Source: Candidatus Bathyarchaeota archaeon
GTDB lineage: Archaea; Thermoproteota; Bathyarchaeia; Bathyarchaeales; Bathycorpusculaceae
Direction of reading: 5' to 3'
Assembly: GCA_022865455.1 (NCBI GenBank)
Contig: JALHSY010000055.1
Location: 3,965 to 67,964, forward strand
Length of the DNA stretch: 64,000 nt
In this document: positions 1,869 to 20,452 of the stretch, piece after piece
How positions within the stretch are numbered: the first letter of the stretch is position 1
How the letters are laid out: every line of letters begins with the position of its first letter
Program-made: the position numbers and the translations under genes
The notes under the pieces: model-generated
What the model saw: the letters and a program-made list of their open reading frames with translations, nothing else
Databases searched by the model: none
What the model was told of the DNA's origin: nothing

Positions 1869-2429
1869 TTAATGAGCAAGTTTAATGCAAATTGCCACAT
1901 GGCATTGCAAGCCCTCGTCTTCCAACGCAACAATGCTCAGATTTGCAGCCTGTAGCAGTTCTCCAAAATTATTTAGCGTGAAAGACTTCTTCAAACCGGT
2001 GACAACTATGACAGCCTCTTTTTTTGCGACTCGATTAAGCTCGTTAAGTGTCGTGGCGGGATTCGGCGTGTTTTGTACGAGCGTAAGGGCAAAGACATTG
2101 CTGAATGTGTTTCTCCTTAGAGGCATGTAGTCCGCATCGGCCAAGATCAAGTGCACATTCGAGTAATCTTTGGCGCGCGTTTTGGCTTGCTGCAAAGTCT
2201 TCCTAGAAATGTCCAGTCCGACAGTTGCCCTTGCTCGGTTAGCAACATGTTTGAACAGCAGTCCAGTCCCGCAGCCAACATCCAGAGCCATGCCACTTCT
2301 GACGATTTTCGCAGTTTTCAAGGCTGCATCGATCTTTGCAGACTGCTCTTCAGCATATCGCATATCATACAGGTGCGCCGTCGTGTCGTAGCGCCGCATT
2401 ATCGCACGTTTCTTGTTCCAGCTGCTCAT
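1869..2429 (-). CDS. Class I SAM-dependent methyltransferase
   Basis: 186 aa with motif I LDVGCGTGLL and a downstream acidic loop GLDIS. The size is typical of small-molecule methyltransferases. Confidence 0.8.
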   Translation of the reverse strand: MSSWNKKRAIMRRYDTTAHLYDMRYAEEQSAKIDAALKTAKIVRSGMALDVGCGTGLLFKHVANRARATVGLDISRKTLQQAKTRAKDYSNVHLILADADYMPLRRNTFSNVFALTLVQNTPNPATTLNELNRVAKKEAVIVVTGLKKSFTLNNFGELLQAANLSIVALEDEGLQCHVAICIKLAH

Positions 2430-2490
2430 GGTACGCCTTCAGAAATCTTATGTATGCACAAGTCCTCATAAACTATTGGCGGACAACACC

Positions 2491-3276
2491 GTGCCTGATT
2501 CCAAACCTTTAACAGTTCTAGTCAATCCGAACGTTGCAGAAGCGGAAAAGACAGCTAGAGAGGCTGTTTCTCAACATAAGACGCTGATTGTCATCGGCAA
2601 TTGCTGGGTGCATTATCAGGGCAGGGCAAGGTCGGAACTTGAACCTGGAGAGCGCATCTTGGTAATCAAGCAGGACGGTTCTCTCCTTGTCCATCGTTCA
2701 GTCGGCTATGAGCCGGTTAACTGGCAGCCTCCAGGCTGTGTTTTTCACACTCAAATGCGGGGCAACTTTCTGGAAGTTCACGCTGTAAGACAGAAGCCAG
2801 CTGAATCTGTTAAGGTGTCTTTTGACCGAATCCAGATGGTTTCTGCTCTAAGCCTCCAAGACTCGGGTGAGTTCTCCCTTTATGCAAGTGAGGAGGACAT
2901 GCAGAAAGCCATTTTGTGCAGGCCTTCACTGTTGGAAGAGGGATTCAAGCCTATCAGTTATGAGAAAAGGGTTCAGCCGGGTTTTGTGGACGTCTACGGC
3001 GTGGACAAGGATGGGAAACTCGTAGTTGTGGAGATTAAGCGGAAGAAGGCTGGAAAGGAGGCGGCGATACAACTTGCAAAGTACGTTGACGCGGTAAAGA
3101 GCAGGGCAGATCGTGAAGTGCGAGGGATCCTTGCAGCTCCGAGCATTGCGAAGGAAGTTCAGAGAACATTAGAGACGCTTGGCCTAGAGTTCAAATCCTT
3201 AGACCCGAAAAAATGCGCGGAAACGCTTCGTCGCTCGGAGACTGCAAAGCTGACTGAGTTTTTTGTGGAAAAATAA
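2491..3276 (+). CDS. nucS: Endonuclease NucS (mismatch/branched-DNA nuclease)
   Basis: Contains LIVIGNCWVHYQGRARSELEPGERILVIKQDGSLLVHR...PVNWQPPG and a C-terminal RecB-like VDVYGVDKDGKLVVVEIKRKKA. The track ORF starts at 2413 and overlaps the divergent gene. An in-frame GTG at 2491 gives the usual ~260-aa length. Confidence 0.85.
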   Translation: MPDSKPLTVLVNPNVAEAEKTAREAVSQHKTLIVIGNCWVHYQGRARSELEPGERILVIKQDGSLLVHRSVGYEPVNWQPPGCVFHTQMRGNFLEVHAVRQKPAESVKVSFDRIQMVSALSLQDSGEFSLYASEEDMQKAILCRPSLLEEGFKPISYEKRVQPGFVDVYGVDKDGKLVVVEIKRKKAGKEAAIQLAKYVDAVKSRADREVRGILAAPSIAKEVQRTLETLGLEFKSLDPKKCAETLRRSETAKLTEFFVEK

Positions 3277-3879: not shown

Positions 3880-5502
3880 CTAGGGCAGTATCTTCGAGAA
3901 AGCTTCGTATTCCTTGTCCGAGAACCAGCCTTCAGCCCTAAGTTGCCTCAGTCCGCTCTCAATCTGCTCACGAGCGACACTGGCTTTCAACAGGTCCGTC
4001 TTTTCGCCTGCCTCGTTTGTCTCTCTCTCAAACACGGCGTTCTTCTCCATTAGGGATGGAAACTTGCTCAGAAATGAGCCTATTGCAGGCGAGCGAGGAT
4101 TGAACAACTGTTTTATTCTTGCCTTGCCTAAGGCGCCTTTGAGTTTTACGAGAAGCTTGACGCTGTTCACGGTTGACGGCGGAATGGCCATGTAGCGTTT
4201 TCTCGAAGCGGACTGGAAGCACACCAGATAGAATGGCATGTAGATGATTGACAGTTTCTTTTGTTTCGGTTGTATGCCTAGCTTGTCAGGCACTGTTATC
4301 GATGCTTCTCTGAGTTTTGCCGTGTTGTCCATCTGTTTGATTATTGTCGATGTCAGTTCTTCCATCTTGCCGATTTCCTGTTTGAGGATTTGGGTTTTCG
4401 CGTCTCTTGAAGATTCGATTTCAACCAGTTCTCTGTTTGCTTCTTGGGCTTTGGAGTCGCAATTCGACTTGATTGTGAGGATTTCCCCTGTTTTCTTGTC
4501 CTCAGTCTCCTTCAGATCCTTCTCGAATCTCTTGATCTCAGATTCGACGATGGAAAGCTCTTTTTTCAGCTTTTCCCGCTCTTCTTTCCATTTTCTTTCG
4601 CCAACGGCGTTCTTGCTTTTCGCACTTGTCTTTATTTCCGCCTCGCAGTGTTCAACCCGTCTGTTCAGCTGGTCTTTCGTTTTTTCTCGTTTGACCTTTT
4701 CCTTTTGCAGGCGAAGAAGCTCTTTCTCAAACTTCTTGGAAATCACAGTTATTTCTGCATCGTATTTGCTGCGTATTTCTTTGACCTTTTCTTCGACTGG
4801 ACCTCGGTGTTTCTTCAGTTCTTCGTTGAATGAGTCTCTTGTCTCCCTGATTTGGTCGAGTAAGTTTTTTGCAAACTCTTTGGTAGTCGCATTCAGAAGC
4901 TTCATGCCTTTGCCTAGGTCTCGGACTTCCTCTGCAAACTTGGCTTTCAAGCTTTCCAGTTCGTTTATTGCTGACGAGATCACCGTTCCATCTATTGTCG
5001 AGGGAAGAACCGTCACGTTGCGCGATGCTTCAAAAAGCCCTGCTTCAGCAACATAAGTGTCAAATTCTTGGAGAAAAACAGGTTCAGCCAACAGTCCGTC
5101 TAGGACGGTTTTCTCTTGTCGGTCTGACACCTGAAAATAGTTTTGGTTGTCTGAGAGGAAAGCAGCGTAAGCTTGTCTGGAGCTGGAGCTTCTTTCGGCG
5201 CTGCCGATGAAAGTTGGGATTTCTTGGATTTCCGGGTGCAGTAGCGCATGAGAGTGTGCCTTCAATCCGTCGAAGATTAAGTTTGCTTCGTGGAACGGAG
5301 CGACCCATAAAGGGTAGTACGTTTTTGCTATGAAGCTGATTTTTTCTGGGGGCTGTTTTATGACGATTCCGCCGCCTTTTCTTTTTTCCATTTGAGCCAA
5401 ACAGAAGACTGCGGCTTTTTCCGTTTCTTCTGGGAACTGTTCGCGGCGGTTCTGCGATAAGACGGAAAACGGGAGAACCAGTTCGGGTGTTTCTTGAGGC
5501 AA
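3880..5502 (-). CDS. Hypothetical coiled-coil protein
   Basis: Long uninterrupted 540-aa ORF. The central ~250 aa are K/E-rich heptad-like sequence. No recognisable catalytic motif. Confidence 0.6.
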   Translation of the reverse strand: MPQETPELVLPFSVLSQNRREQFPEETEKAAVFCLAQMEKRKGGGIVIKQPPEKISFIAKTYYPLWVAPFHEANLIFDGLKAHSHALLHPEIQEIPTFIGSAERSSSSRQAYAAFLSDNQNYFQVSDRQEKTVLDGLLAEPVFLQEFDTYVAEAGLFEASRNVTVLPSTIDGTVISSAINELESLKAKFAEEVRDLGKGMKLLNATTKEFAKNLLDQIRETRDSFNEELKKHRGPVEEKVKEIRSKYDAEITVISKKFEKELLRLQKEKVKREKTKDQLNRRVEHCEAEIKTSAKSKNAVGERKWKEEREKLKKELSIVESEIKRFEKDLKETEDKKTGEILTIKSNCDSKAQEANRELVEIESSRDAKTQILKQEIGKMEELTSTIIKQMDNTAKLREASITVPDKLGIQPKQKKLSIIYMPFYLVCFQSASRKRYMAIPPSTVNSVKLLVKLKGALGKARIKQLFNPRSPAIGSFLSKFPSLMEKNAVFERETNEAGEKTDLLKASVAREQIESGLRQLRAEGWFSDKEYEAFSKILP

Positions 5503-5547: not shown

Positions 5548-6930
5548 TTATGAAAGCTGCAGTTTCTCCATCTGCGAAACCTGTTTTTCCGGAGCAAAGA
5601 AATCGGTTATTCTCTTCTGGAATAGCGCGCTTTTTAACAGGTCACTTCTCCTTATCCATTGTTCCAGCGGAATTTGGAGTCGGGCTGCAATCCATTTCAA
5701 CGCCATTTCCAAGGTGTTGAAGATGTACGGCTTCTGCCTCATGGCGTTTCTCACGTTCTCCCTCACTTGCCACACTCCGACAGGCATTATGTAGCCTGGG
5801 CGAGCCTCGCGCAGCACAATCACGGTGGCCTGTCTTCTTTCCTTCACAAGCTGGTCGCAGACGGCCAAACGTGCGGCATAGTAACAGCCGCCTATTTCTG
5901 CGTAGGTTGTTCTTCCATCGTGGCCTTCCCAGTCCGAATACATGACGGCTTCACTGCCGCCAGGATTCCAGACGGTGCCCGGGTACCATGCTTCCATGGC
6001 TTCGTAGCTCCAAGCGCTTGGGATCATTAGAATTTCGAAGATGTTGTCCAAGTACCGAGATTCGTACACGCGGTGTTCGTTTATTTCGGGGAATTGTTTT
6101 ACTTGGGCCATGAGGTTCTTTGAGACGATGTCGTCCACTGCGGTTATGCTCCAGCGTGTTGGCACGAGGCGCCTGTTGTCTTTCAGGCCGAATGCGCCGA
6201 CGCTGAAGGCTCTTTGAATCTTCGTAACGGAAACGCCTTCTTCGTAAAGTTCAAGCACGGCTGGCACGGCTTTCAGGTCGGTGTCGCTGTAGGCTTTCTC
6301 CACATGCTGGTCCCATCGGGTGTTGCTCAGGAGCAAGTCGCGGATTGGTGCTGAAGGCCCGAAGGGTTGGACTTCGTCGTCGAGGAATATGGAGCCATGC
6401 GGTCTCTTGGTCAACAGCAACTCGACATCCACTGGTTTGACGGCCAGTGCCAGTTCACGGGTCTTGTCAATTATTTTCCCCGCTTCCTCGAACCTTCTCA
6501 CGTGGACTCGGTGTTTGCCGCGGATGAGCATTGAGCGGAAGCCGACGATCTCGTCCATAGACCTTCCAAACCACAGCTCTGGCAGGTCGTAGAGGCTTGT
6601 GTCTTCCTGCACGGGCGGGACAAGTGGGCCAGCATAGACGTTTGGGTAGCCGATTCTGCCGACGAAAACGCTCGGTGGCGACGCGCCGGCTATGTCTTCG
6701 CTGCTCATTAAGGGCACGCTCCTGAGGTAGTATTTCACTTTGACCATTATGGGGCAGCGGTCTTTTCCGCAGAGAAGTCTTGAGCCTTTGCAGATTACGC
6801 ATAGACCGCTTTTCGAATCTTTGCCGGTAATGGTCAGAACGCCTTCTTGGTCGAGGTTCGTGCTTCTTAGAAGATCGTGCACCCAAGTGTTTGAGTAGGC
6901 TTTGCTGACTTGTTTTGGTGAAAAGGTCAA
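5548..6930 (-). CDS. Nre-family archaeal DNA repair protein (DUF650/DUF651-like)
   Basis: 460 aa with an N-terminal Cys cluster CVICKGSRLLCGKDRCP. Length and overall pattern match my memory of archaeal Nre proteins. Assigned by recall only. Confidence 0.65.
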   Translation of the reverse strand: MTFSPKQVSKAYSNTWVHDLLRSTNLDQEGVLTITGKDSKSGLCVICKGSRLLCGKDRCPIMVKVKYYLRSVPLMSSEDIAGASPPSVFVGRIGYPNVYAGPLVPPVQEDTSLYDLPELWFGRSMDEIVGFRSMLIRGKHRVHVRRFEEAGKIIDKTRELALAVKPVDVELLLTKRPHGSIFLDDEVQPFGPSAPIRDLLLSNTRWDQHVEKAYSDTDLKAVPAVLELYEEGVSVTKIQRAFSVGAFGLKDNRRLVPTRWSITAVDDIVSKNLMAQVKQFPEINEHRVYESRYLDNIFEILMIPSAWSYEAMEAWYPGTVWNPGGSEAVMYSDWEGHDGRTTYAEIGGCYYAARLAVCDQLVKERRQATVIVLREARPGYIMPVGVWQVRENVRNAMRQKPYIFNTLEMALKWIAARLQIPLEQWIRRSDLLKSALFQKRITDFFAPEKQVSQMEKLQLS

Positions 6931-7061: not shown

Positions 7062-7343
7062 ATGAGCGAAAATGTGCGTTACTACAAGGGAAAGTACAAA
7101 GTTAAGGTTTTGACTGAGAGCAAGGGAAGCTGGATTGTTGAGGCTTTAGAGTCGTTTGAAGATGACGTTCAAGGCACAAAGACGGAAGTCAAGGCCGGTG
7201 AACGACGCATCGTAGCTCCGAACCTGCTTCTCAAGAAAGAAAGCCTGCCGCCTCCGATAAAAGAGCACGTCTACGAGTTGAAAATAGAGAAGAAGCTCAA
7301 GCATTTGATTGAAGAAAAAGAGAAAGGACAGAAACAAGTCTAG
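7062..7343 (+). CDS. Hypothetical small protein
   Basis: 93-aa ORF in an otherwise empty intergenic space with a plausible K/E-rich composition. No homology recognised. Confidence 0.4.
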   Translation: MSENVRYYKGKYKVKVLTESKGSWIVEALESFEDDVQGTKTEVKAGERRIVAPNLLLKKESLPPPIKEHVYELKIEKKLKHLIEEKEKGQKQV

Positions 7344-8182
7344 GAGATAGGCTTCTTTCCGTACACTTTTACGCTTGACACTATGCCAACCATTTGCTTC
7401 AATTCATCATGGGAAACGCCTAGTTTCTCGGCTTGAGTTTTCACGTTTGGATCGTCAAGCATGAATTCAGCTGGAAAGCGTGTCTCATCAATCACTTTGA
7501 CTTCTTTGAATCCTGCTTTCTCTATCATTTTCAAGTATTCCCTTTTCTTCACAGCACCTGCCACGCAGCCTACGTAGGCTCTGACGTTTTCCTTCACAGA
7601 CTCAGGAAGCTTCTTGTCTAGAACAATGTCCGAAATCATCAATCTGCCGCCAGGTTTCAGAACTCTGAAAGCTTCTTCGAAGACTCTTTGCTTGTTTGGC
7701 GAAAGGTTGATCACGCAGTTGGAAATAACAGCGTCAACCGTGTTGTCGGCAACAGGTAGATTCTCTATTTCTCCAAGTCTGAACTCGACATTCTTACGTC
7801 TGCTTTTGCGAGCATTTTCTCTCGCTTTGTCAAGCATCTCAGGAGTCATGTCCACGCCGATCACCTTTCCAGTTTCCCCCACTTTCTTTGCAGCGAGAAA
7901 ACAGTCAAAACCTCCGCCTGAACCAAGATCAAGAACGGTTTCGCCTTCCCTCAGGGAAGCGATAGCAATGGGGTTTCCGCAGCCGAGACTCAGATCGGCG
8001 CCTGCAGGGATAGAATCGAGCTCTTCGTCAGAATAACCGATTTTCTTGCTGTACTCTCTTTGCGTATCGCTTTTGTCGCAGCACACATCTGAAGAACCAC
8101 AGGAACAAGCCTGTTCTTTTGCGACTTTTGCGTAGCCTTCACGCACCATCTTCCTCACCTTATCTTCTCTCACACTGTTCAC
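7340..8182 (-). CDS. arsM: Arsenite S-adenosylmethionine methyltransferase-like
   Basis: Contains an N-terminal Cys pair CSCGSSDVCC, then SLGCGNPIAIASL, VLDLGSGGGFD, VIGVDMTPEML, VISNCVINLSPNK, FRVLKPGGRLMISD and YVGCVAGA. This is the canonical ArsM pattern. Confidence 0.8.
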   Translation of the reverse strand: MNSVREDKVRKMVREGYAKVAKEQACSCGSSDVCCDKSDTQREYSKKIGYSDEELDSIPAGADLSLGCGNPIAIASLREGETVLDLGSGGGFDCFLAAKKVGETGKVIGVDMTPEMLDKARENARKSRRKNVEFRLGEIENLPVADNTVDAVISNCVINLSPNKQRVFEEAFRVLKPGGRLMISDIVLDKKLPESVKENVRAYVGCVAGAVKKREYLKMIEKAGFKEVKVIDETRFPAEFMLDDPNVKTQAEKLGVSHDELKQMVGIVSSVKVYGKKPIS

Positions 8183-8436
8183 CTCCTTACTTGAGAATCG
8201 CTAAGCATGGGACCAAGCATCGATTTTATTTGGTCACTAAGGTTGTCGGCTTTAATCATTATTATGCAGCATATCTCGCCCTTATGCTCATAGCCGATGA
8301 CTGCCAACTTGTCGTCTGGCTTCAGTCCAGCCTTTTCTCTCACGTCTTTGGGCAAGACTATCTGACCCCTCGCATCCATCGACACAACTGCATCAACCCT
8401 GAAACATCCCTCTTGGTCCTTCACACACATCACCAC
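8179..8436 (-). CDS. AbrB/SpoVT-type DNA-binding protein
   Basis: 85 aa with the swapped-hairpin motif MDARGQIVLPKDVREKAGLKPDDKLAV. It overlaps the arsM start by 4 nt, which suggests an operon. Confidence 0.65.
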   Translation of the reverse strand: MVMCVKDQEGCFRVDAVVSMDARGQIVLPKDVREKAGLKPDDKLAVIGYEHKGEICCIIMIKADNLSDQIKSMLGPMLSDSQVRR

Positions 8437-8600
8437 AGAAAAGCAAATCGCTTCGGAATATTAAAACTTATCTGAGAATTCTGATAAATCCGAAATAACT
8501 GAGGGTTGGCGCCCTGGCCGAGATTTTGCCCAATTTCCAAATCTCGCTTCTTGCATGATGCATAAAAAATGATTGATCTCCTGTTCAAATATATCGTTTG

Positions 8601-8620
8601 CGTTTTATTTGCATAAAACG
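8601..8620. promoter_or_regulatory. Palindrome CGTTTTAT-TTGC-ATAAAACG (copy 1 of 3)
   Basis: Perfect 8-bp inverted repeat with a 4-nt spacer, 165 nt upstream of the abrB-arsM operon. The same palindrome occurs at 31779-31798 and 34631-34650. Confidence 0.6.
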
Positions 8621-8910
8621 AAAACAACAGTTTCCGACTTGGCAGATTCTCCGCTCTTATGGCAGAATCAACAACTTGGATTCTTGACATCATTATTCTG
8701 AAGCCTATTCATTCAATTGCCAAAAAAGTCTGAAAAGTTACTCTTGGTCTTTGATAGAGGGGCAAAGGAACTTGAGCAATCTGTTTCATTGGCTTCAATA
8801 CTGAATGCTTTTCTTATTTCGCCGGTCTCTAGACCGCCTTCTTCCGGTAGAACTTGGCAAAGTCGACAGTATGAACAACTGGGGTTTTATGGATCGTTGT
8901 GGTGGGGTCG

Positions 8911-8935
8911 CTTAGGTCAAAGCCCACGTTTGAAC
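8911..8935 (+). repeat. 25-nt direct repeat, left copy (CTTAGGTCAAAGCCCACGTTTGAAC)
   Basis: 23/25 identical to 12718-12742 in the same orientation. The two copies bracket the 1162-aa fusion gene. Confidence 0.7.
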
Positions 8936-9129
8936 CCTGAGGTTTGATTGTGCCTTGTTTAGGCAAGCAAAAGAGAAGGGATTCAGACAGAGCAGGACGG
9001 TTGGATTAATCTATTGACGAGTTCTTGGATGTCATTCAGTTCCGCCGTAGACTCGCCGATACACCAAACTTGGCTGTTTGAGTGCATTTTATTGTCATGC
9101 AAATGAAATAGATGACTAGTTCAAAAGGA

Positions 9130-12100
9130 TTAAGTTGCATCTATTTCGCCGGTAAAGAGCCTTGGTCTAAGATTCGGGTCTCTGATCATCTCCGCATATT
9201 TTTGATATATTTTTTCTGAAGTGGTTCGAGGCACTAGCTGAAGTGAGGTTTTGAAATGCTCTGGCGTCAAAACCATTCCCTCCGCCATTTCAACTACAGT
9301 TTCCCATAGTTTCTTTAAGTCGCTCATCGAATAATGCTCTGTTAGTCTTGCGATCTCTGTCAACAAGAGTTTGCTGGAACAACTCATTCCTCTAGCTAGT
9401 GTCTGCAAATATCTCAGCCTTGTTTCAAAGTCTGGAAGCGGGAAGTATGCAGTTTTTAGTCTTCTTGCGGCAGATTGAAAAATCTTGTACGGATCATTCT
9501 CTGCCGTTATGAAAACAATTCTGGCTTTTTCGTCTTTCATGATTCTATTGTATTCATCGTTAAGCACGCCGAGAATACCCTTTTGCTTTTCTTCCAGCAA
9601 AGAGTCCGCCTCGTCTATGAAGATGACTGCGGGCATTGCCTTCCAAGCGTTGTCGACAATCAAAGCAAATTCCTTTTCAGGCTTTTCAAGCTTGAGAATA
9701 TCTTTTGCATGAATTGTGACATAGCTCTTAATGATCTTCTTCCTCTTCAAATCCTCCAGGAGACGTGAAACTACGTAGCTTTTCCCTGCGCCAGCTATAC
9801 TGAAGAGATTCAGACCAGCATAACTGGCCAGATCACGTGGTTTTCTAATGCCAACAAAGTCTTGAATGATTTGAGCTAATTTTGCCCTAATTTTCACGTG
9901 ATTTCCAATATGTACGTTTACACCTTCGAGCAACGCTTTTAGATGAGAGGCCGCAAGTTCCACATCCCTTTCGTTGTTGAAGTGGTGAACACAGATTCTA
10001 ATACATGGAGGCTTACGCAAAGATCTTACAATGATATTTGACTTTCCCAACAAGGCTACTATCTTTTCATAAGTAGCATTTTCCTCGTTTCCTTGAATCT
10101 GAAGAATTAGCATTCCAGTCTTGGCCGCATCAGTCGGGTTTAATACTCTCCATTTTGTGTTCTTGATAGCGTCCTGAAATCTTTTAACAAGCTTTTCTTT
10201 CCATTTTGAGATTTCTGAGAAACGCAGTTTTGACACTGTCCCAATCGCTTCGCCTAAGCCGATAATTTTGGCAACATCTGCAGTGCCCAATTCATAAATT
10301 TGCCCATCACTCTTTTTGGGGGCATGTTTGGGGGAAACCGTGTAAGCCGTTGAGATTGGTAAATGGACTCCAAATGGGTTATCAGCTTCAAGGTTTTCTT
10401 CCTTAGAGTATAACAGACCTGTTCCTTCTGGTCCCAACAACCATTTATGCCCATCAAAAGCGTAAAAGTCGCACCCAAGATCTTTGACATTAACGCTAAT
10501 ATTGCCAACTGCGTGGGCTCCATCTACGAGAACAAACATCTTTCTACGCAAGCCTTTCGAAGCTTGCTGGCATTTCTTCACGATCTCTTTGATAGGCAAT
10601 TGCTTACAAGCACTGAACAGTATATGGCTTAGTATTATCAACCTTGTATGGGGGCCAATTCGGCTAATGAGTTTAGGAAGCCATTCCTTTCCTTCCAAAA
10701 TCTCTTTTTTGATTGAGGCAACGTCAAAGGTTTGGCCTAAGTGGTCTTCGTAGTACTCTTTGAGACGATAGACCACATTGTGTTCGAGATCTGTTGTCAG
10801 TACTTCGTCTCCTTGTTTGAGCACTCCTCTTAAAACCAAGTCAATACTTGAAGTCGTGTTATTGGTAAATATGATAGAGTCGCTACTCTCAGCTCCGATG
10901 AATTTCGCCACGAGACTTCTAGTTTGCTCGATTTTCTCCCCGAGTTCCTTTTCTAATTCTGTCCCTATTGGTCCTTCTTCGTTTCGACGCGCCAACCATC
11001 TTTCTTGTTCGTTCAAAACTGACTTATATGTAGAAGTCAGGCCCCCACTGTTCAAGAATATTCTGTAAGATTTCAGATTAAGGTGAGCGCGAGTCCCAAA
11101 TTTATCATAAGAAAACTCCTCTGACAGACGCACTCGCAGTCGATTTGCAATGCCCACATACTCCATAAGCTCTCCTATGTCTATCAAGTCTCTCTGCAAT
11201 TCCTTCTTCAAGCCCTTGCCTAATCGCAGGTTTTTTTCCTTGAGCTCCCCAAAAAGTGACTGCAAATCCTCAACAATCAAGTCAAAAGTTCTGGAAAAAC
11301 TCACCACTATCTCCTTGTAGTCTTTTGTGTCCAAGTCTATGATTCCATTCTCAACGAGCCAATCTTTCAAATCCTGTTCGTCATCAAACAGAAGCCGTAT
11401 GCAGGGAATAAGCTTGTGTTTTATCAGGAATTTGACGTCTTTCACTCGGTACATTAGCAGAAGTAGTGATCTCACCAACTCCTTGGATGAAGGAAATTGC
11501 TTCCCACAACTGGACAATATGTTGAAAAACGAACGGACTAGTTCGTCTCCCTCTTCAGTAATGGTCTGGAACTTTGATTTCAGTCCAGCAATTGCTCGTA
11601 TCTTGCTATAAAGAACTACTTCAAAAGTCGTGCATCTAGCGTAGAACTCGACTATCAAGCGTTGTATGTCTTCATTCGGCTCAAGCATGCCAAGCCTGTA
11701 CGGTTCAATCAGCTCTCCCACATATTCATCTTCATATTTTTTGCAGTCCATTAGAATATCAAAATATTTCTCTCCAATAGTTCTAGCTGTCTTTTGAACG
11801 TCAATCTCACTACTACTTTTCTTTGTGACCGCTGAAGATATGGCGCTTCTCAATTCAGCAAGTGCAAAGTCATACTTAGTCTTAAGGAGTGGGGGCAAGT
11901 GGTTTTCCAATTCGAGCAGAGAGTTGAGCAAGTACAGTGAATTTCCGAGAGTTGACAACTCATTTGCTAGTCTCTCTACAAGCTCAACGATATCGAAGAA
12001 TTCGTCTGGCGAAACTCCGTAATTCTTAACTTGTTTAAGGATAGATTCCGAAAAGGTGTCAGGATTGCAATCTTTTCTCAATCCTGGCTCGATTATATAT

Positions 12101-12618
12101 TCATAGAAGTCTAGGAGATCTGGTTCATTCCACTCGCTAATGAAACGTTCGGGATTTTCAACCTTGTAGTCAGATTCTCTCAGCCGTTTCAGGAATTTCT
12201 CTCTTTCGCCATTCTCTAGTTTCTGAAAGACAATTTGTCCTACGTATAAATATCCGATAACCTCGTCTGGCCATATCATTATTGGAAACAGAAGATTCGG
12301 AAATCCTCTCCCCTGGTGACACCTGTAGAAATACCCTTTCTTATGCGTTCTAGCCATGTGTGCGCCTTCAGTGTCTGAAAGCAAGCACTTGAGCTGAGCT
12401 TTTTCGTTCAAAGGGCAGTCAATCATGCTTTGGCAGACGTTTCCACCCAATTCTTCGGCTCTTCTCGCAAATACTCGTGTTTTTGGAAACTTTCCAGTTA
12501 TTGGTCTTGACTGAAGATCCTCAAAAACTACAGAAACTTTTCCCTTGAATAATCTCGCAAGTCTTTCTTGCAAGAACTCCAAAAAAGACCTGTCAAGAAT
12601 TGTTGTCAGATCAGTCAT
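9130..12618 (-). CDS. Multidomain protein: PocR-like sensor domain, helical region, class-V aminotransferase/cysteine desulfurase-like PLP domain, and C-terminal AAA+ ATPase
   Basis: Uninterrupted 1162-aa ORF. The N-terminus has YRCHQG..FPIMI..VIGYLYVGQI (PocR-like). The middle has IIFTNNTTSSIDLV, VDGAHAVG and FDGHKWLLGPEGTGLLY (PLP lysine). The C-terminus has Walker A SIAGAGKSY, Walker B VIFIDEADSL and AAA-type YFPLPDFETR. Confidence 0.85.
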   Translation of the reverse strand: MTDLTTILDRSFLEFLQERLARLFKGKVSVVFEDLQSRPITGKFPKTRVFARRAEELGGNVCQSMIDCPLNEKAQLKCLLSDTEGAHMARTHKKGYFYRCHQGRGFPNLLFPIMIWPDEVIGYLYVGQIVFQKLENGEREKFLKRLRESDYKVENPERFISEWNEPDLLDFYEYIIEPGLRKDCNPDTFSESILKQVKNYGVSPDEFFDIVELVERLANELSTLGNSLYLLNSLLELENHLPPLLKTKYDFALAELRSAISSAVTKKSSSEIDVQKTARTIGEKYFDILMDCKKYEDEYVGELIEPYRLGMLEPNEDIQRLIVEFYARCTTFEVVLYSKIRAIAGLKSKFQTITEEGDELVRSFFNILSSCGKQFPSSKELVRSLLLLMYRVKDVKFLIKHKLIPCIRLLFDDEQDLKDWLVENGIIDLDTKDYKEIVVSFSRTFDLIVEDLQSLFGELKEKNLRLGKGLKKELQRDLIDIGELMEYVGIANRLRVRLSEEFSYDKFGTRAHLNLKSYRIFLNSGGLTSTYKSVLNEQERWLARRNEEGPIGTELEKELGEKIEQTRSLVAKFIGAESSDSIIFTNNTTSSIDLVLRGVLKQGDEVLTTDLEHNVVYRLKEYYEDHLGQTFDVASIKKEILEGKEWLPKLISRIGPHTRLIILSHILFSACKQLPIKEIVKKCQQASKGLRRKMFVLVDGAHAVGNISVNVKDLGCDFYAFDGHKWLLGPEGTGLLYSKEENLEADNPFGVHLPISTAYTVSPKHAPKKSDGQIYELGTADVAKIIGLGEAIGTVSKLRFSEISKWKEKLVKRFQDAIKNTKWRVLNPTDAAKTGMLILQIQGNEENATYEKIVALLGKSNIIVRSLRKPPCIRICVHHFNNERDVELAASHLKALLEGVNVHIGNHVKIRAKLAQIIQDFVGIRKPRDLASYAGLNLFSIAGAGKSYVVSRLLEDLKRKKIIKSYVTIHAKDILKLEKPEKEFALIVDNAWKAMPAVIFIDEADSLLEEKQKGILGVLNDEYNRIMKDEKARIVFITAENDPYKIFQSAARRLKTAYFPLPDFETRLRYLQTLARGMSCSSKLLLTEIARLTEHYSMSDLKKLWETVVEMAEGMVLTPEHFKTSLQLVPRTTSEKIYQKYAEMIRDPNLRPRLFTGEIDAT

Positions 12619-12717
12619 CTGCAGTCACCTAGTAGGCTATAGATAGCTCCTGCTATTCCCAGTATAAGTCTTACGTGTAGTAAAGGCGAAAGTTGGAAGG
12701 CTCGTTGGATACTAAAA

Positions 12718-12742
12718 CTTAGGTCAATGCCCACGCTTGAAC
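12718..12742 (+). repeat. 25-nt direct repeat, right copy (CTTAGGTCAATGCCCACGCTTGAAC)
   Basis: See 8911-8935. It lies 100 nt upstream of the fusion-gene start, in the divergent promoter region. Confidence 0.7.
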
Positions 12743-12943
12743 ACACGCATCTGGCTAGGTCTAGCAAATTCCCAAAAGTTATCTCTCAGAACACTCATTA
12801 CTCATGTTTCATCTTCCAAACAGACGCAAGTGTCTTGCGCATTAGAAAGAGCAATCTCCCAACATAGTTGTTCCAGAAGTTGAGGATAATCAGCAAGAGT
12901 GAATTCTTTTAAATCAATTAGAGCATAGTATCGTCGGGTTGAC

Positions 12944-14011
12944 ATGACAAGAAGTTACGTGGTTCCCGATCCGCCAGAATTGATTTCCCAGATCAGTGAA
13001 ATTGTTGCCAGAATTCAGCCGTTATGGGACGCAAGAGACTTCAGAGCCACTGAACCCTTGTTCAGGCAATACTATGAGACAATGAGAGCTTGCGAAGAGA
13101 CTCTGCCCGAAGGCAAGAGGCTCCACAAGGGCGCACCTTTGCATAACTGGGGCATTTCAATATTGTTGCAGGAAGAACCCACAAGGATTCAGGAAGCTGT
13201 CGAGAAAATCTTCCTCGCTTACATAGAAGATTTGTTAGACTTTGATACTATTGACCAGGTTCACTCATCCTCTGCTTACAAAACGCTGTACACCAGTCCA
13301 ATTGGCGTGGATGCTTTATCCTCTGCTCAGACCATAGTGGAAGAACTAAGAAACGCTGGAAGAATTCCAAAAAACCCTGAAGAAGTCTTCACTGAAAGCT
13401 TGCGCAGAGAAACTCAACTGGGACTTCGACAAACAAATACCAAGAAACTCAAGACAGTCTTTGTAGTACATGGCAGGAACTTGAAAGCCCGAGACTCCAT
13501 GTACTCTTTCTTAAGGTCACTCGATATGAACCCGATAAACTTGGCGGAAACCATGCTTCAAAGTGGACTAGTAACTCCATATATAGGTGAGGTGTTAGAT
13601 TACGCCTTTTCCCTTGCTCAAGCCGTCGTGGTTCTCATGACGCCTGATGATGTTGGTTGCTTGCGAGAACCATTTAGAAAAGCTGGTGATCCGATTCATG
13701 ACACAAAATTCACACCTCAAGCTCGACTAAATGTGATTTTTGAAGCAGGTATGGCGATGGAGGGAAAGTTCCGTAAGAGAACGATATTAGTTGAATTGGG
13801 TCAACTTCGGCAATTGACTGACTTGGGTGGCCTTTTCATGGTGCGACTAGATAATTCAATTGAAAAACGTCAAGACCTTATAGCGCGACTGAAGAACTGC
13901 GGGTGTACGGTTAATGACACAGGTGACGGTTGGCGCCGAGCAGGGGATTTCGAAACGACTATAGTCCATAAGGAGAATTTCCTACGTCGATTCATGCTTT
14001 CGCACCTTTAG
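12944..14011 (+). CDS. CAP12/PCTIR-type TIR-like domain protein with N-terminal helical domain
   Basis: The C-terminal half has VFVVHGRNLKARDSMYSFLRSLDMNPINL...AQAVVVLMTPDD...ARLNVIFEAGMAMEGKFRKRTILV...LTDLGG. This matches the pattern of the predicted nucleotide-binding TIR-like family (PF10137-type). The N-terminal ~170 aa are helical and of unknown function. Confidence 0.75.
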   Translation: MTRSYVVPDPPELISQISEIVARIQPLWDARDFRATEPLFRQYYETMRACEETLPEGKRLHKGAPLHNWGISILLQEEPTRIQEAVEKIFLAYIEDLLDFDTIDQVHSSSAYKTLYTSPIGVDALSSAQTIVEELRNAGRIPKNPEEVFTESLRRETQLGLRQTNTKKLKTVFVVHGRNLKARDSMYSFLRSLDMNPINLAETMLQSGLVTPYIGEVLDYAFSLAQAVVVLMTPDDVGCLREPFRKAGDPIHDTKFTPQARLNVIFEAGMAMEGKFRKRTILVELGQLRQLTDLGGLFMVRLDNSIEKRQDLIARLKNCGCTVNDTGDGWRRAGDFETTIVHKENFLRRFMLSHL

Positions 14012-14236: not shown

Positions 14237-14893
14237 ATGAGCAAACCAAAAAGAAACGATAGAAAGGTCGAGGTTACTGGCATTTCCTCAAGCGACTCCA
14301 TTAAGAGATACAAGACACTTCTTGAAAACGAGTTTGGTGCTTTTGACGTTGAGGATAAGGGAGAATATGTCTTACTGCATAAGAGAATCAAACTTCCCGA
14401 CAGGAAATTCATCAATATCATCGTATACTCTACTGATAGAATATGCGTTTCTGGTTCGGCATCCATAGATACTGGCGAATTTGGACAAAAAGCAACGAGA
14501 ATCGTTGAACTAGCTCAACAAGCCAACACACCTATTGAGGATGTAAGACCAATCTCCGTTCAAAGTGCCAAAGACATTCTGGGTTTTGCTAAAAACCTCA
14601 ACTTAGACAAGGACTATGAACGAATGATAGCGATTATTCTGTCAGATACTTCCAATGAAATTGTTCTTAGGGAGAAAATGAAGGCTTTCCAAATTGGGGG
14701 TACTGCTCTTGATGACAGCATTCCTGAGAAAATAAGAAGATTAAAAGAAAAAGGTTGCCAGATTGTTGAAGAAGCTGCAATAAAAAACCTTAGAGAGACA
14801 CGAAATAGGATTGTACACTACGGAGAAATACCCCATAAAGGGCAAGCAGAAGAGTGTTTGAAAGTAGCAGATCATGTGCTTCAATCGGTGTAA
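14237..14893 (+). CDS. Two-domain protein: RNase HIII N-domain-like (TBP-like) plus C-terminal HEPN (R-x4-H) domain
   Basis: The C-terminus has LRETRNRIVHYG, which fits the RNxxxH(Y) HepT/DUF86-style HEPN motif. The N-terminus has KVEVTG...IIVYSTDRICVSG, which resembles the RNase HIII N-terminal domain pattern. The stop lies 3 nt before the next gene. Confidence 0.55.
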   Translation: MSKPKRNDRKVEVTGISSSDSIKRYKTLLENEFGAFDVEDKGEYVLLHKRIKLPDRKFINIIVYSTDRICVSGSASIDTGEFGQKATRIVELAQQANTPIEDVRPISVQSAKDILGFAKNLNLDKDYERMIAIILSDTSNEIVLREKMKAFQIGGTALDDSIPEKIRRLKEKGCQIVEEAAIKNLRETRNRIVHYGEIPHKGQAEECLKVADHVLQSV

Positions 14894-14896
14894 AAC

Positions 14897-15550
14897 ATGG
14901 TTCTTGAAGGATTGAATGAATACGTTGCCTACATTGGGTCTGATGAAGCAGGCAAAGGTGAGTGGCTTGGTCCTCTTGTCGTGACGGCGGTTGCGTTATC
15001 AAAGCAACAACGTTCATATCTTGTTACTCAAGGAGTAATGGATAGTAAAGAACTTAGGCTTGATGTTATTGCTGAACTTGCGAAAATAATACAGAAGTCA
15101 TGCCTGTCTTACCATGTCGTCACTATTTCCCCACTTTCATTCAACGGTTTGATGAAAGAGGTAAAAGGTGAGGGACGGAGTCTAAACGACATTTTGGCAT
15201 GGGGGCACTCACAAGCAATCGGCGACGTTTTTGAAGAATTGACTAGAAACGGAATATCTGGTAAGATCAAGCTTTCAATCGATATGTTTGATAGGATAAA
15301 AACGGAAGACAGATTGAAAAGAATCATTGATTTGAGAAAATTCGATTTGGATCACCGACCCAAAGCAGAAAGCGAAACCTCTGTAGCAGCAGCAAGCATA
15401 GTCGCTCGGGCTGTGAGGGAACTTTGGATTGATGAAAAATCGAAGGAACTCCGTCTAGATTTGCGAAGGCTCTCGGTTAATGAAGCAATATCGCATTCTG
15501 ATGCTAATTCCTTTGCGAAGCTGAGTTTCTTGAAGCGCAGAAGACCCTAA
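14897..15550 (+). CDS. RNase HIII-type ribonuclease H catalytic domain protein (no N-terminal domain)
   Basis: Contains GSDEAGKGEWLGPLVVTAV, GVMDSKEL, AWGHSQAI and KAESETSVAAASIVAR. These match RNase HII/HIII catalytic motifs with the HIII-like KAES..AAASI.AR tail. Confidence 0.7.
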   Translation: MVLEGLNEYVAYIGSDEAGKGEWLGPLVVTAVALSKQQRSYLVTQGVMDSKELRLDVIAELAKIIQKSCLSYHVVTISPLSFNGLMKEVKGEGRSLNDILAWGHSQAIGDVFEELTRNGISGKIKLSIDMFDRIKTEDRLKRIIDLRKFDLDHRPKAESETSVAAASIVARAVRELWIDEKSKELRLDLRRLSVNEAISHSDANSFAKLSFLKRRRP

Positions 15551-15891
15551 TTTTGTTTGCTCGCATTTTGAATCAGAGTTATCCACTTGTTTTGACCTCC
15601 AATTTTTATTCCACAAGCTTCCGCTGGAGTCTTACCGTCTAAGCCTTCATGTGGTCTTATGAAGTTATGAAACATTTGGTAGCCCTTTAGAATTGGTGTG
15701 TCTTCTTTCTTCAAACCCCTCATGACTTTCTCTCTATCTCTCACTTCTCCATTAAACCGTTCCATTTTGTTGTTGTTTCTGTCTCCCTGAATAGTTATGT
15801 GCCTTACATGTTCTGTCCTTGTATCCTTCCTGAGATTCCAAAACTCCTTCTTGTAAGCATCGTGATAAGCTGGCAAACCATCCGTTATCAA
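15547..15891 (-). pseudogene. Truncated IS6-like DDE transposase (C-terminal half only)
   Basis: The 114 aa ITDGLPAYHDA...NNNKMERFNGEVRDREKVMRGLK...FIRPHEGLDGKTPAEA align with residues ~180-300 of the intact transposase at 18638-19579. It lacks the Zn finger and the first catalytic Asp. Confidence 0.7.
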
Positions 15892-16157
15892 GGTCCCTTG
15901 AAATAGAACTCGGCTGTGACCTTCTCCAATCTGCTAAACTTCTCTTTCAATTCAACCGTCTTACGCTCAATATCCGTTAATAGAGCATCATATTCATTAT
16001 CGGTTGATGCAAATTCATTTAGAGCCTGAAGTCTTCCTCGTGAGACTTTAGCCCCTGATTGAAGTTTTTCTTCTAACACTTTTTCTCTCTGTTCAAGTAA
16101 CTCAAATTCCTTCTTCAAGAATCCATATCTGCTCTCATAACGCTGTCTGGTTGACAT
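15888..16157 (-). CDS. Hypothetical coiled-coil protein fused or abutting the transposase fragment
   Basis: 89-aa ORF whose TGA overlaps the TTG of the transposase fragment. It does not resemble a transposase N-terminus. Confidence 0.35.
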   Translation of the reverse strand: MSTRQRYESRYGFLKKEFELLEQREKVLEEKLQSGAKVSRGRLQALNEFASTDNEYDALLTDIERKTVELKEKFSRLEKVTAEFYFKGP

Positions 16158-16285: not shown

Positions 16286-18004
16286 CTATTTTGGAGATAG
16301 TGACCATGTATTGACTGCTAAATCAGCAAGTTTCTTCTGCCTTTCATTTATCTCGATTGGACTCCACAGAGTTTGTTCATTTGTGAGTTCGCAAATAAGC
16401 TGAGTTATTGCTAGTGGGCTTTTCTTGTATACAAGTCGTTTGGTCTGGAACGGAGCATTTCCAAAATCAGCGTTAGTTGTTGCGTTTAGTAAAGTCATAT
16501 TTCCGATTCTTTTGGTGTATGCATCTGCCGTTTCAGAATCAATATGTGGCCAATTGTTTGATCGTTCATACGGTAGGATATGTTCTAAGTTGAGAAAATC
16601 CGTATCTCGTTCTGGAACTAATTCTGGTTGAACATCCTTTCTCACGCAACGTTCTATTGCACGTAGATAGTATCGAGCAAGATTATGTTGTGATACTCTC
16701 GCAGTTGTAAAGGCTGTTCTAAATTCTTCGTCAGAAGGAATTACAGTCACTAAACTGTCTAGTAGTTCCTTTGTAGTCTTGATTTTGCCCATAGAGACGC
16801 TTAGAGCTTGATCTCCGTATGCATCTTCCAATTGTCCCCCCCTCATGCCACCAGAAATCAAGAATCTAACAGTCCAGCATATGAAGGAACGAAATGAAGT
16901 CAACGCTTCTGATGGCTCAAAATGCTTCGCAACAGCGAGCATTAATGGACGTATTTGTTGCACTTTCAATTCCCTAAGATTTGCAATACTTTCGCCGATT
17001 TGAGCTGGATAGCTATTCCACTTTTCATGAGTTGGAGTGAGTATTGCAGCATAACTATTTGCATAATCGGCAAGCTTGTCCAGAAAGCTAATTGCTTGAC
17101 CTCTACCTTGTACTTCTTTCTGAATCTTCTCGAATATTTCTTTTTCACGTGTTGGACCATACAACGTAATCATCAAGTGCCTCAGGTAAGTCATTACTAT
17201 GTCCTCAATGCCCAAAGTTTCCAGTATAGCAATCATTCTAGACCATTTTTGCTGTGCTTCTTGTATACGGTCACCTGCTTCATGGAAAAGAAAATTCTTA
17301 ACCAAATCAGCTTGAGAAGTCTTAAGACCACGATCATTTAGCGTTTCAAACATCATGAAGGCATTCACTTCATCAGGAACGGTCAGGTGAATGATAGTGG
17401 CTTTGTTGTCTATGAATTCTAACCATTCATTCAGGATGTCTTTAATGTTCCTGAAATCAGTCTGATTCTTCACTAAGTCTTGAACTAGACTTTCTGCTTT
17501 GTTTGCTGCAAAGTCGATTCGCTTGTGTGATTCTTTCTTTGGCTCAACAGACTGTCGTTCTTTAGCATTTGGTAGAGCAATTATGCGATTCTTAAAGTAT
17601 TCATTATCATCTGTGTTCAACGCCAGCTTAGGCACAGTTTCTACTTGTTCTCGATCAATTTTATACAGGTACTCTGTGTCAATGGAAGCTTGCAATGTTT
17701 CCTGTTTGTTCAAGTAAAAATAGTCCCTGATTGCTGCTAGTAGTATTGTCGTAGTTGCCAATCTTTGTTGTCCGTCCACTACTTCTGGAACGTTTTTTGA
17801 GCCCTTTGAAATCACGATTGTGCCGAGAAAATAGATAGATTGCTTATTTCTTATTGCATTCTGGAAATCTCGGAATAGATCGCCAATATGCTTGTCTTCC
17901 CATGAATATTCACGTTGATTAGGGGGAACTTTCAAGCGACCAGCTTTTAGCAATGTTCCAATCCCTTTAAACTCAAAAACTGAACTAGTCGTTATTTTCT
18001 GCAT
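16286..18004 (-). CDS. GmrSD-like DUF262/DUF1524 protein (type IV restriction-like nuclease)
   Basis: The N-terminus has PNQREYSW and VVDGQQRL (DGQQR ParB-like NTPase motif). The C-terminus has LNLEHILP...NMTLL (His-Me/HNH-like DUF1524). Confidence 0.85.
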   Translation of the reverse strand: MQKITTSSVFEFKGIGTLLKAGRLKVPPNQREYSWEDKHIGDLFRDFQNAIRNKQSIYFLGTIVISKGSKNVPEVVDGQQRLATTTILLAAIRDYFYLNKQETLQASIDTEYLYKIDREQVETVPKLALNTDDNEYFKNRIIALPNAKERQSVEPKKESHKRIDFAANKAESLVQDLVKNQTDFRNIKDILNEWLEFIDNKATIIHLTVPDEVNAFMMFETLNDRGLKTSQADLVKNFLFHEAGDRIQEAQQKWSRMIAILETLGIEDIVMTYLRHLMITLYGPTREKEIFEKIQKEVQGRGQAISFLDKLADYANSYAAILTPTHEKWNSYPAQIGESIANLRELKVQQIRPLMLAVAKHFEPSEALTSFRSFICWTVRFLISGGMRGGQLEDAYGDQALSVSMGKIKTTKELLDSLVTVIPSDEEFRTAFTTARVSQHNLARYYLRAIERCVRKDVQPELVPERDTDFLNLEHILPYERSNNWPHIDSETADAYTKRIGNMTLLNATTNADFGNAPFQTKRLVYKKSPLAITQLICELTNEQTLWSPIEINERQKKLADLAVNTWSLSPK

Positions 18005-18487: not shown

Positions 18488-18641
18488 GTTTTCCACCCTT
18501 CGTTAAATATCCCTTCTCTGAGAGCCAACTCATTATTATTGTTCGCAGCGTGTCTGAACACGTTTCGCCTATCGTTCCAACTAACTCTTTGTTCAGGAGA
18601 TCAGCAACATTTTCAGGAAGTGCTACTAGGACTTTTCTCAT
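18474..18641 (-). CDS. Small RHH/CopG-like protein (55 aa)
   Basis: My own translation gives MRKVLVALPENVADLLNKELVGTIGETCSDTLRTIIMSWLSEKGYLTKGGKHGKE. Its ATG overlaps the transposase TGA (ATGA). Confidence 0.4.
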   Translation of the reverse strand: MRKVLVALPENVADLLNKELVGTIGETCSDTLRTIIMSWLSEKGYLTKGGKHGKE

Positions 18642-19712: not shown

Positions 19713-19868
19713 ATGACAAAAAACCACATAACCGTTCGTTTGCCCCCAGAATACATAGAATGGCTTGAGAAAAAAGTTGAAGCCCACGATTATGGTTCAG
19801 TCAGTCATGGCATAACCCAACTTATCCGTGACGAAATTAGACGAGAAGAAGGCAAGAAAAATGAATGA
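19713..19868 (+). CDS. Small RHH (CopG-like) protein (51 aa)
   Basis: My own translation gives MTKNHITVRLPPEYIEWLEKKVEAHDYGSVSHGITQLIRDEIRREEGKKNE. Its stop overlaps the ATG of the next gene (ATGAATGA). Confidence 0.5.
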   Translation: MTKNHITVRLPPEYIEWLEKKVEAHDYGSVSHGITQLIRDEIRREEGKKNE

Positions 19869-20445: not shown

Positions 20446-20452
20446 ATACTTT

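Follow-up and report, generated by a model that had tools for sequence, protein, structure and literature searches.

What might a cell gain from a single polypeptide that joins a ligand sensor, a pyridoxal phosphate (PLP)-dependent enzyme and an AAA ATPase? The question is raised by a 64-kb stretch of DNA, here called the window, on contig JALHSY010000055.1 of a Candidatus Bathyarchaeota archaeon. At positions 9130..12618, on the minus strand, the list of open reading frames (ORFs) gives a complete gene with an ATG start for a protein of 1162 residues, in which a PocR domain, a helical region, a PLP domain and an AAA module follow each other. We propose, with moderate confidence, that this fusion protein is a ligand- and ATP-gated, self-assembling C–S lyase. 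Its domains place it among the class-V PLP enzymes of the C-DES (cystine C–S lyase) type, the PocR-domain proteins and the classical AAA proteins. Each of its domains is ordinary, and their combination is an undescribed architecture of known domains.

Domain architecture of the fusion protein

The protein is identical to NCBI entry MCJ7430127.1, named there 'aminotransferase class V-fold PLP-dependent enzyme [Candidatus Bathyarchaeota archaeon]', and its N-terminus, MTDL..., is the start common to all homologs. An initial annotation, made from the sequence without database searches, had read a PocR-like sensor, a class-V PLP enzyme and an AAA+ ATPase from the motifs YRCHQG, FPIMI, VIGYLYVGQI, IIFTNNTTSSIDLV, VDGAHAVG, FDGHKWLLGPEGTGLLY, SIAGAGKSY, VIFIDEADSL and YFPLPDFETR. 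All of these motifs are present in the ORF, and the three domain calls proved correct, with three Pfam matches above the curated cut-offs. The profile searches, proposed at that time as a check, did detect the PLP and AAA domains.

The fold-type-I, class-V PLP domain comprises residues 520-897 (9928..11061, minus strand) and is assigned to the C-DES type by Pfam, PDB and Foldseek comparisons. The Pfam model Aminotran_5 covers residues 520-866 with 168.6 bits against a cut-off of 21.5 (E 2.6e-49). In a PDB sequence search the best match is C-DES (1ELQ, E 8.4e-34), with a gap-free alignment through PPCIRICVHHFNNE, and C-DES is also the best structural match found by Foldseek (template modelling score 0.76). 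Residues H724-K725, D699, H613, T588-T589 and R874 do not vary among 14 members with identities as low as 34%. The Schiff-base lysine, the pyridine-N aspartate, the stacking histidine and the carboxylate-binding arginine among them (H724-K725, D699, H613, R874) align with the C-DES segments, and the PLP lysine K725 is encoded at 10444-10446.

Alignments of the PLP domain did not reveal a persulfide-carrier Cys loop of the NifS/IscS/SufS/DndA type before the C-terminal arginine. The interval from VR865 to R874 is merely 'SLRKPPCI' and aligns without gaps with C-DES, which itself has no loop; the C-terminal segment reads 'VRSLRKPPCIRICVHHFNNERDV' in the window protein versus 'IRTIADPDCIRACCHYITDEEEI' in C-DES. 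SufS and NifS profile alignments end at residue 866 or earlier, short of the Cys-loop region, and the NCBIfam desulfurase cut-offs are not reached (SufS 141.5 vs 475.1, CsdA 98 vs 607, NifS 65 vs 531, DndA 59 vs 480). Because the catalytic Cys loop is absent and the alignment to C-DES is gap-free, the PLP domain is not a NifS/SufS-type desulfurase. The original call of a cysteine-desulfurase/aminotransferase class-V fold thus stands for the class-V PLP fold and falls for the desulfurase, which is replaced by a C-DES-type enzyme without Cys loop. By sequence and fold the domain is a C-DES-type C–S lyase with a predicted activity. C-DES and the C-DES-like enzyme YcfC, both without the relay cysteine, are true C–S lyases that release a sulfur product (PMC12494993).

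The N-terminal PocR domain, a PAS-like sensor, occupies residues 7-150 (12169..12600, minus strand) and matches Pfam PF10114 with 39.4 bits against a cut-off of 23.9. Foldseek returns weak matches for the N-terminal model, all of them PAS, Cache, LOV or GAF sensors (best E 0.13). C62, C78, C100, D82 and N108 are invariant within the domain; the three cysteines are invariant in 15 of 15 sequences, relatives without the AAA module included, and a fourth cysteine lies close by. The conserved cysteines may point to a site that binds a metal or an Fe-S cluster or responds to redox state. Conservation is highest in PocR, with a mean identity of 64% and a ratio of nonsynonymous to synonymous substitution rates (dN/dS) of 0.08-0.19, and diversifying selection on the sensor was rejected on these values. 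An assignment to the PocR transcriptional regulators (NCBIfam NF047788) was also rejected, with 23.5 bits against a 500-bit cut-off and no helix-turn-helix (HTH) domain.

The middle region, residues 151-519 (11062..12168, minus strand), is a presumed transducer or scaffold. It is all-helical in the AlphaFold models, as the initial annotation had claimed: uninterrupted helices run through residues ~136-523 in both models, mostly with a predicted local distance difference test (pLDDT) score of 75-90. The region has no Pfam match, and Foldseek found no PDB fold match with E<0.1. Its first half is also present in the relatives that lack the AAA module, and its dN/dS is 0.12-0.18.

Residues 908-1162 (9133..9897, minus strand) form a classical-clade, Vps4/CdvC-like AAA module with its lid, as indicated by Pfam, NCBIfam and PDB matches. 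Pfam PF00004 covers residues 940-1054 (35.4 bits against a cut-off of 21.2), the NCBIfam CdvC model matches with E 4.8e-14 (52 bits against a 650-bit cut-off), and the PDB match is archaeal Vps4 (4LGM, E 1.3e-13). The Walker A motif GAGKS is encoded at 9778-9792 and the Walker B residues DE at 9610-9615, and sensor-1 N1041 and the arginine finger R1053 are in place, the latter within a Vps4-like 'ARRL..YFPLPD' segment. G945-K946, E1003, N1041 and R1053 are invariant among the aligned members, down to 34% identity, and the C-terminal tail of the module, FTGEIE, is conserved. A residue alignment to 4LGM shows that the RR fingers are kept, while K-W-L-G of pore loop 1 is replaced by I-L-K-L; this loop is variable and non-aromatic in the family, and the pore-loop-2 region is shortened. 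A Pfam scan did not find an MIT domain in the fusion protein. A Vps4/CdvC ortholog was rejected on the missing MIT domain, the I-L-K-L pore loop and the 52 bits. From these sequence features we read the module as a ring-dependent ATPase but not as a canonical polypeptide translocase.

The linker between the PLP domain and the AAA module, EGVNxHIGNH at residues 898-907 (9898..9927, minus strand), is strongly conserved: in 14 members, down to 34% identity, E898 and G899 do not vary and H903 hardly does. It is modelled at low pLDDT. The strong conservation suggests that the PLP and AAA parts are coupled and not loosely tethered. Purifying selection acts on all four regions, each of which has a dN/dS of 0.08-0.20 among three closely related copies. 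Since the linker is almost unchanged and dN/dS is this low in every region, the fusion is kept as a single functional unit.

Rarity of the family and exchange of the C-terminal module

The architecture is exceptionally rare. A word-indexed search of 5.8 billion clusters returned 11 full-length homologs of 49-100% identity, all of the same architecture, and an exhaustive hidden Markov model scan of 1.84 billion representatives gave, at 50% identity, four clusters of the complete architecture (P0004, P0014-P0016) and one fragment. Among 185,579 species-representative genomes there is one locus of the family (L017, in another Bathyarchaeota metagenome-assembled genome), the remaining matches being stand-alone bacterial C-DES-like enzymes. 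A motif-directed scan of 241 million metagenome records yielded four loci. Searches with the AAA module or the helical region by itself gave no matches at all, the family's own members included, a limit of the prefilter that makes this negative uninformative. Bathyarchaeota are the only taxon names seen for the full architecture. The family did not occur in the viral contigs searched, and in plasmid and phage records the matches reach no further than the PLP domain. In the literature and databases searched we found no characterised or described protein of this architecture, which agrees with the remark in the initial annotation that no characterised PLP–AAA+ fusion was known.

A second tier of uncharacterised relatives (P0012, P0018, P0019, P0021, P0023-P0027 and P0032) lacks the AAA module but has in common with the fusion protein the PocR domain, the C-DES-like domain and the first half of the helical region. 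These proteins terminate in a charged helical tail of ~115 residues, in nothing, or in a KaiC/DUF7504 domain. The tails of several of them are mutually homologous and are read as coiled coils. P0023 ends in a KaiC/DUF7504 domain of RecA fold that has 'VVLTSPSCNERD' at the Walker A position, with no recognisable P-loop lysine. Because the sisters keep both the sensor and the PLP domain and replace the AAA module by a coiled coil or by a KaiC-like domain without Walker A motif, the conserved core is sensor plus PLP domain, not the ATPase. The KaiC-like domain, the coiled-coil tail and the AAA module are interchangeable self-assembly modules behind the lyase. A split-gene version of the fusion was rejected: the gene directly after P0018 has no similarity to an ATPase (BLASTP E 9.9; no Pfam match).

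One distant relative differs in its setting. P0012 (1216 residues; L011, 8680-13651) has an insertion of ~140 residues within the PLP domain, and its gene lies 74 nucleotides (nt) downstream of an archaeal S-adenosylmethionine synthetase gene on the same strand, in housekeeping surroundings. This setting hints that the branch without AAA module may be metabolic and not mobile.

A proposed gated C–S lyase and competing explanations

In the mechanism that we propose, the PocR domain with its three invariant cysteines would sense a small molecule, a metal or a redox cue, and the helical region of ~370 residues would pass the signal on and serve as a scaffold. The C-DES-type domain, presumably dimeric, would cut the C–S bond of cystine, cysteine or a cysteine S-conjugate by beta-elimination, with pyruvate, ammonia and a free persulfide or thiol as the products; the sulfur would be released and not handed to an acceptor protein, because the persulfide-carrier cysteine loop is absent. 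The Vps4-like AAA module would bind and hydrolyse ATP in a ring, as suggested by the conserved trans-acting arginine finger. In the absence of aromatic pore loops, it would act on the lyase as a nucleotide-dependent assembly or conformational switch and not as an unfoldase. Our main reason for giving it a role in assembly control is that the sister proteins swap self-assembly modules at the same position. Fold-type-I PLP enzymes are typically dimers, and since a dimerising enzyme is here joined to a hexamerising ring, a higher-order particle is predicted, for example a double ring of 12 chains or a larger lattice.

Several points weigh against the proposal of a gated lyase. The full-length AlphaFold model is of moderate confidence (pLDDT 70, predicted template modelling score 0.37; residues 1-525, pLDDT 76), and its inter-domain geometry is not reliable. 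The family consists of ~15 sequences, most of them on contigs shorter than 10 kb, which makes for weak context statistics. Some AAA proteins function without canonical pore loops, so remodelling by the ring is possible. The non-catalytic PLP sensor domains of GabR and MocR also retain the conserved PLP residues, and for this reason these residues fall short of proving catalysis. Finally, the substrate, the ligand and the oligomeric state named above are predictions.

The protein probably acts conditionally in the cell, in response to stress or infection; it may serve defence, detoxification or the handling of sulfur or redox stress. A tentative and more far-reaching version, to which we give a distinctly lower probability than to the gated lyase as such, is a one-protein archaeal conflict system carried by mobile elements. 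Here the PocR domain would detect a cue of infection or damage, assembly of the AAA ring would activate the lyase, and growth would be arrested by a collapse of cyst(e)ine or by a flood of persulfide or sulfide. We know of no earlier PLP-enzyme immune effector. If this version is true, the protein would be the first of that kind, and a classical AAA module would be newly used as an assembly switch.

It is unlikely that the logic is reversed and the PLP domain acts as a second sensor, which would form an external aldimine without turnover in the manner of GabR and MocR, while the AAA ring provides the output by remodelling or sequestering a target. Catalysis is not proven by PLP-binding residues alone, two potential ligand-binding modules precede an intact ATPase, and classical AAA modules usually provide a mechanical output. 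However, pore loop 1 varies and has no aromatic residue, pore loop 2 is shortened, and the sisters retain PocR and PLP domains while exchanging the AAA module, which leaves a core without ATPase. Moreover, the substrate-carboxylate residue R874 is invariant together with the full C-DES-like active-site set.

Slightly less probable again is a role of the AAA module as an in-cis activase or chaperone of its own PLP enzyme, loading or exchanging the cofactor or releasing dead-end adducts, as ClpX does for ALAS. Non-covalent pairs of PLP enzymes and AAA+ proteins do exist (PMC7077987, PMC7812809), such as LdcI with the MoxR AAA+ protein RavA, and the linker between the two parts is strongly conserved here. 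But the threading pore loops needed for activation of the ClpX type are degenerate in this protein, and the sister lineages without AAA module evidently manage without such help. The gated, self-assembling C–S lyase is the reading that we favour. Two further explanations, both far less probable, are taken up with the genomic context below.

The gene as a mobile unit

A 25-nt direct repeat flanks the window gene at both ends, as the initial annotation had noticed. The right copy, CTTAGGTCAATGCCCACGCTTGAAC (12718..12742, plus strand), lies 100 nt upstream of the start codon, and the left copy, CTTAGGTCAAAGCCCACGTTTGAAC (8911..8935, plus strand), 195 nt downstream of the stop codon. The copies are identical at 23 of 25 positions and are the sole two matches in the 64-kb window, where 100 shuffles gave an expectation of 0; a flank-versus-flank comparison scores 19 against a shuffled maximum of 12. 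The left copy holds an imperfect palindrome, TCAAA-N7-TTTGA. An independent metagenome contig, 99.93% identical, covers positions 8865-13132 and stops 46 nt outside the left repeat and ~390 nt past the right one.

A tRNA origin of this repeat was rejected, as there is no tRNA or Rfam match in the window, and no other locus of the gene has the repeat. It may be the core of an attachment (att) site, a target duplication or an operator-like palindrome. The left copy lies 218 nt upstream of a putative operon at 7340-8693 (minus strand), so a shared operator is another possible reading of the repeat.

A promoter-like block, a TATA-like box followed by AAGACTTAT, precedes the ATG by 46-68 nt (12664..12686, minus strand). 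The sole upstream element conserved in 10 loci is AAGnCTTAT behind a TTATAA-like box, and such a block would act as a promoter that travels with the gene. The copies in L001, L010 and L099 are 88-89% identical in DNA; their homology runs from ~64 nt before the ATG to the stop codon, and the flanks are unshared. The confinement of the homology to the gene and ~64 nt, together with the conserved upstream block, indicates that the gene is transferred by itself, along with a putative promoter.

Other loci show borders of a similar kind. In L001, a perfect 20-nt repeat encloses 7.45 kb with a tyrosine integrase gene, an AbiLi/PDC-M38-like ATPase–DUF3226 pair and the fusion gene; on the right, the 3' end of the integrase gene is present a second time, in a decayed form of ~310 nt. 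In L014, a 38-nt repeat stands on both sides of the gene, and its upstream copy matches the 3' end of a tRNA-Gly at 26 of 27 positions. The KaiC-type sister P0023 is the cargo of an integrase element in L102 (4533-17719), where an intact tRNA-Gly(GCC) gene and a perfect copy of its 5' 37 nt lie 13.1 kb apart; this attL/attR pair encloses a tyrosine integrase gene, the P0023 gene, several unmatched ORFs and the gene of a 1020-residue HD-CE/HATPase_c_3 protein. Since L001, L014 and L102 have att-like repeats accompanied by an integrase, by tRNA-Gly or by both, and the window has its 25-nt repeat, we regard the gene as accessory cargo of small integrative elements. It is a stand-alone gene, horizontally mobile in Bathyarchaeia, on repeat-bounded integrative elements.

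A second candidate for the cassette ends did not hold. The motif GCGCGC / CTAGCGCGCGC occurs ~70 nt upstream of the gene in four lineages; it was rejected because it is also found in other intergenic regions and is absent near the window copy. A GCGCGC(GC) palindrome lies near the borders of the gene in L001, L008, L009, L014 and L099 (upstream at -65 to -161, downstream at +16 to +26) and almost never inside the 3.5-kb gene, the host contigs having ~43% GC. In some Bathyarchaeia it may be a signal that marks intergenic regions across the genome.

Genomic context and defence genes

The analysis covered about ten non-redundant contexts in which the full-architecture gene occurs and three of the relatives without AAA module. 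In an all-against-all BLAST, no flanking ORF is conserved across 7 independent contexts apart from the gene itself and its shadow ORFs, and three further contexts likewise differ in their neighbours. The homologs lie in variable regions often associated with integrases or defence genes and not in conserved metabolic operons, the location that the initial annotation had named as refuting its view. Recognised defence genes stand beside the full-architecture gene in 3 of ~11 contexts: TIR/PDC-S35 and GmrSD/HEC-06 in the window, an AbiLi/PDC-M38-like pair plus an integrase in L001, and an MmeI-type restriction-modification enzyme with PD-(D/E)XK and PIN proteins in L004. Elsewhere the neighbours are unmatched or housekeeping genes, for example EF-2 and POR (L017) or glutamine synthetase (L099). 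A role of the fusion protein in conflict, as first suggested, is plausible from this context and is not a shown property; the same grade applies to a role in defence. PADLOC-DB 2.0 returned generic SspA/DndA PLP matches only and nothing for the sensor, helical or AAA parts. Membership in any PADLOC defence system was rejected, because no system-specific model with partner genes matched.

The window copy sits in a low-GC stretch (39-43% versus 47-49%) with IS240-family transposases and a UPF0175/DUF3368 pair. Divergent from the fusion gene is a gene for a 355-residue protein (12944-14011, plus strand) with a C-terminal TIR domain of the CAP12/Pycsar type (E 2.7e-22; PADLOC PDC-S35, E 2e-22), the N-terminal ~170 residues of which have no match. 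It is followed by a tight pair of genes with a 3-nt gap, one for a 218-residue protein without Pfam, NCBIfam or PADLOC match (14237-14893, plus strand) and one for a 217-residue RNase HII/HIII-like protein (14897-15550, plus strand; Pfam RNase_HII E 3e-23, below the NCBIfam cut-offs). This extra RNase H is oddly placed, between the TIR gene and a transposase fragment. A GmrSD-type (DUF262 + DUF1524) type IV restriction enzyme is encoded at 16286-18004 (minus strand), with a near-full-length HEC-06 match (E 2.6e-179). On one side of it lies a 313-residue IS240-family DDE transposase gene (18638-19579, minus strand), and on the other a truncated second IS240 transposase of 114 residues, preceded by an 89-residue coiled-coil ORF (15547-16157, minus strand).

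Two explanations draw on these neighbours, and we regard both as very improbable. One is that the protein is a sulfur-mobilising cysteine desulfurase joined to an ATPase and works in Dnd/Ssp-like phosphorothioation of DNA or in another thiolation pathway. The PADLOC models of SspA and DndA do match the PLP domain (83 and 79 bits), and the GmrSD-type DUF262/DUF1524 nuclease, with weak similarity to SspE, is encoded 3.7 kb away in the window. However, the persulfide-carrier Cys loop is absent, the scores are far below all NCBIfam desulfurase cut-offs, no DndBCDE or SspBCD partner is present in the window or the other contexts, and the nuclease matches HEC-06/GmrSD far better (E 2.6e-179) and is not conserved beside the gene. 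The other, equally remote, is a two-gene signalling system in which the fusion protein would be the sensor or regulator of a TIR effector: the genes are divergent and 325 nt apart, and the TIR protein matches the candidate defence family PDC-S35, but that family is itself listed as a candidate system (we take '-S' to denote a single gene), the TIR gene is absent from every other context examined, and it is outside the repeat-bounded unit, as the right 25-nt copy lies between the two genes. The TIR gene is probably an independent defence gene. Of the neighbourhood described in the initial annotation, the divergent TIR-domain gene is confirmed and the functional link to it is not, none of the other contexts examined having this gene; a wider association with TIR and HEPN neighbours finds no support either, given that the 7 contexts share no flanking ORF and the further ones differ.

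The remaining features of the window lie on both sides of this region. Beyond the transposase gene, a UPF0175/DUF3368 gene pair (19828-20953, plus strand) is read as a toxin-antitoxin pair with a PIN-like toxin, and it is followed by a 401-residue ORF without family match (20950-22155). Before the left repeat, the putative operon consists of an 87-residue unmatched ORF (8430-8693, minus strand) just upstream of an AbrB/MazE-like gene of 85 codons (8179-8436, minus strand), which shares 4 nt with the start of an ArsM/UbiE-like S-adenosylmethionine-dependent methyltransferase gene (7340-8182, minus strand). A cluster of the DNA-repair type adjoins the island, with a NucS endonuclease (2413-3276), a 540-residue coiled-coil protein (3880-5502) and archaeal Nre (5548-6930); the presence of archaeal Nre and NucS genes here agrees with an archaeal host. 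A second defence-type cluster at 45785-57681 looks DISARM-like in its arrangement: it encodes an AIPR abortive-infection protein (45785-47557), a 1751-residue DEAD helicase with a C-terminal MrfA/DUF1998 Zn-binding domain (48433-53688) and a 1329-residue Eco57I/MmeI-type methylase (53692-57681). The giant helicase gene coincides with a strongly negative AT skew at 48-54 kb.

Comparison with known systems

The PLP domain has the same PLP-binding set as C-DES of Synechocystis (PDB 1ELQ/1ELU/1N2T) and a similar short C-terminal segment without the Cys loop of NifS and SufS (PPCIRICVHH, versus PDCIRACCHY in C-DES), although the identity is merely ~25-30%. C-DES and YcfC, the latter from 6-thioguanine biosynthesis, are stand-alone enzymes of ~390 residues, whereas the window domain is placed between a sensor/helical N-terminus of 520 residues and an AAA C-terminus of 255 residues. 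The nearest AAA group comprises Vps4/CdvC and other members of the classical clade, such as spastin and the D2 ring of Cdc48/p97. Walker A, Walker B, sensor-1, the RR arginine-finger pair and the 'YxPLPD' segment of archaeal Vps4 align with the window AAA module; the N-terminal position that serves 'substrate recognition' in Vps4/CdvC is taken by an enzyme in the window protein. The Pfam PocR domain is shared with the PocR regulator of Salmonella and with PocR-containing archaeal histidine kinases. The domain is N-terminal in signalling proteins, as it is here (PMC5847659). The known PocR sensors have an HTH, kinase or cyclase output, while the window protein has a PLP enzyme and an ATPase in that place.

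A covalent joining of a PLP enzyme to a classical AAA ring was not found described in the literature or databases searched. A PLP enzyme and an AAA+ ring ATPase can form one functional unit non-covalently, as in the LdcI–RavA cage and in ClpX–ALAS (PMC7077987, PMC7812809). These two systems may be regarded as the nearest functional analogies of the fusion protein; they differ in that they consist of separate polypeptides, belong to other AAA+ clades (MoxR, ClpX) and other PLP families, and have no sensor domain. If the lyase is ligand- and ATP-gated, it would represent a new regulatory principle for PLP enzymes and also give a handle on the sulfur and persulfide biology of uncultivated Bathyarchaeia. 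If the association with mobile elements and defence islands reflects its function, it would provide a new effector chemistry for prokaryotic immunity. As a single cytosolic polypeptide of 1162 residues, the protein should be amenable to direct testing in vitro. Compared with the stand-alone lyases and the non-covalent enzyme–ATPase pairs, the family offers a natural experiment in the assembly control of an enzyme, in which a sensor–lyase core has been independently fitted with a coiled coil, a KaiC-like domain or an AAA module.

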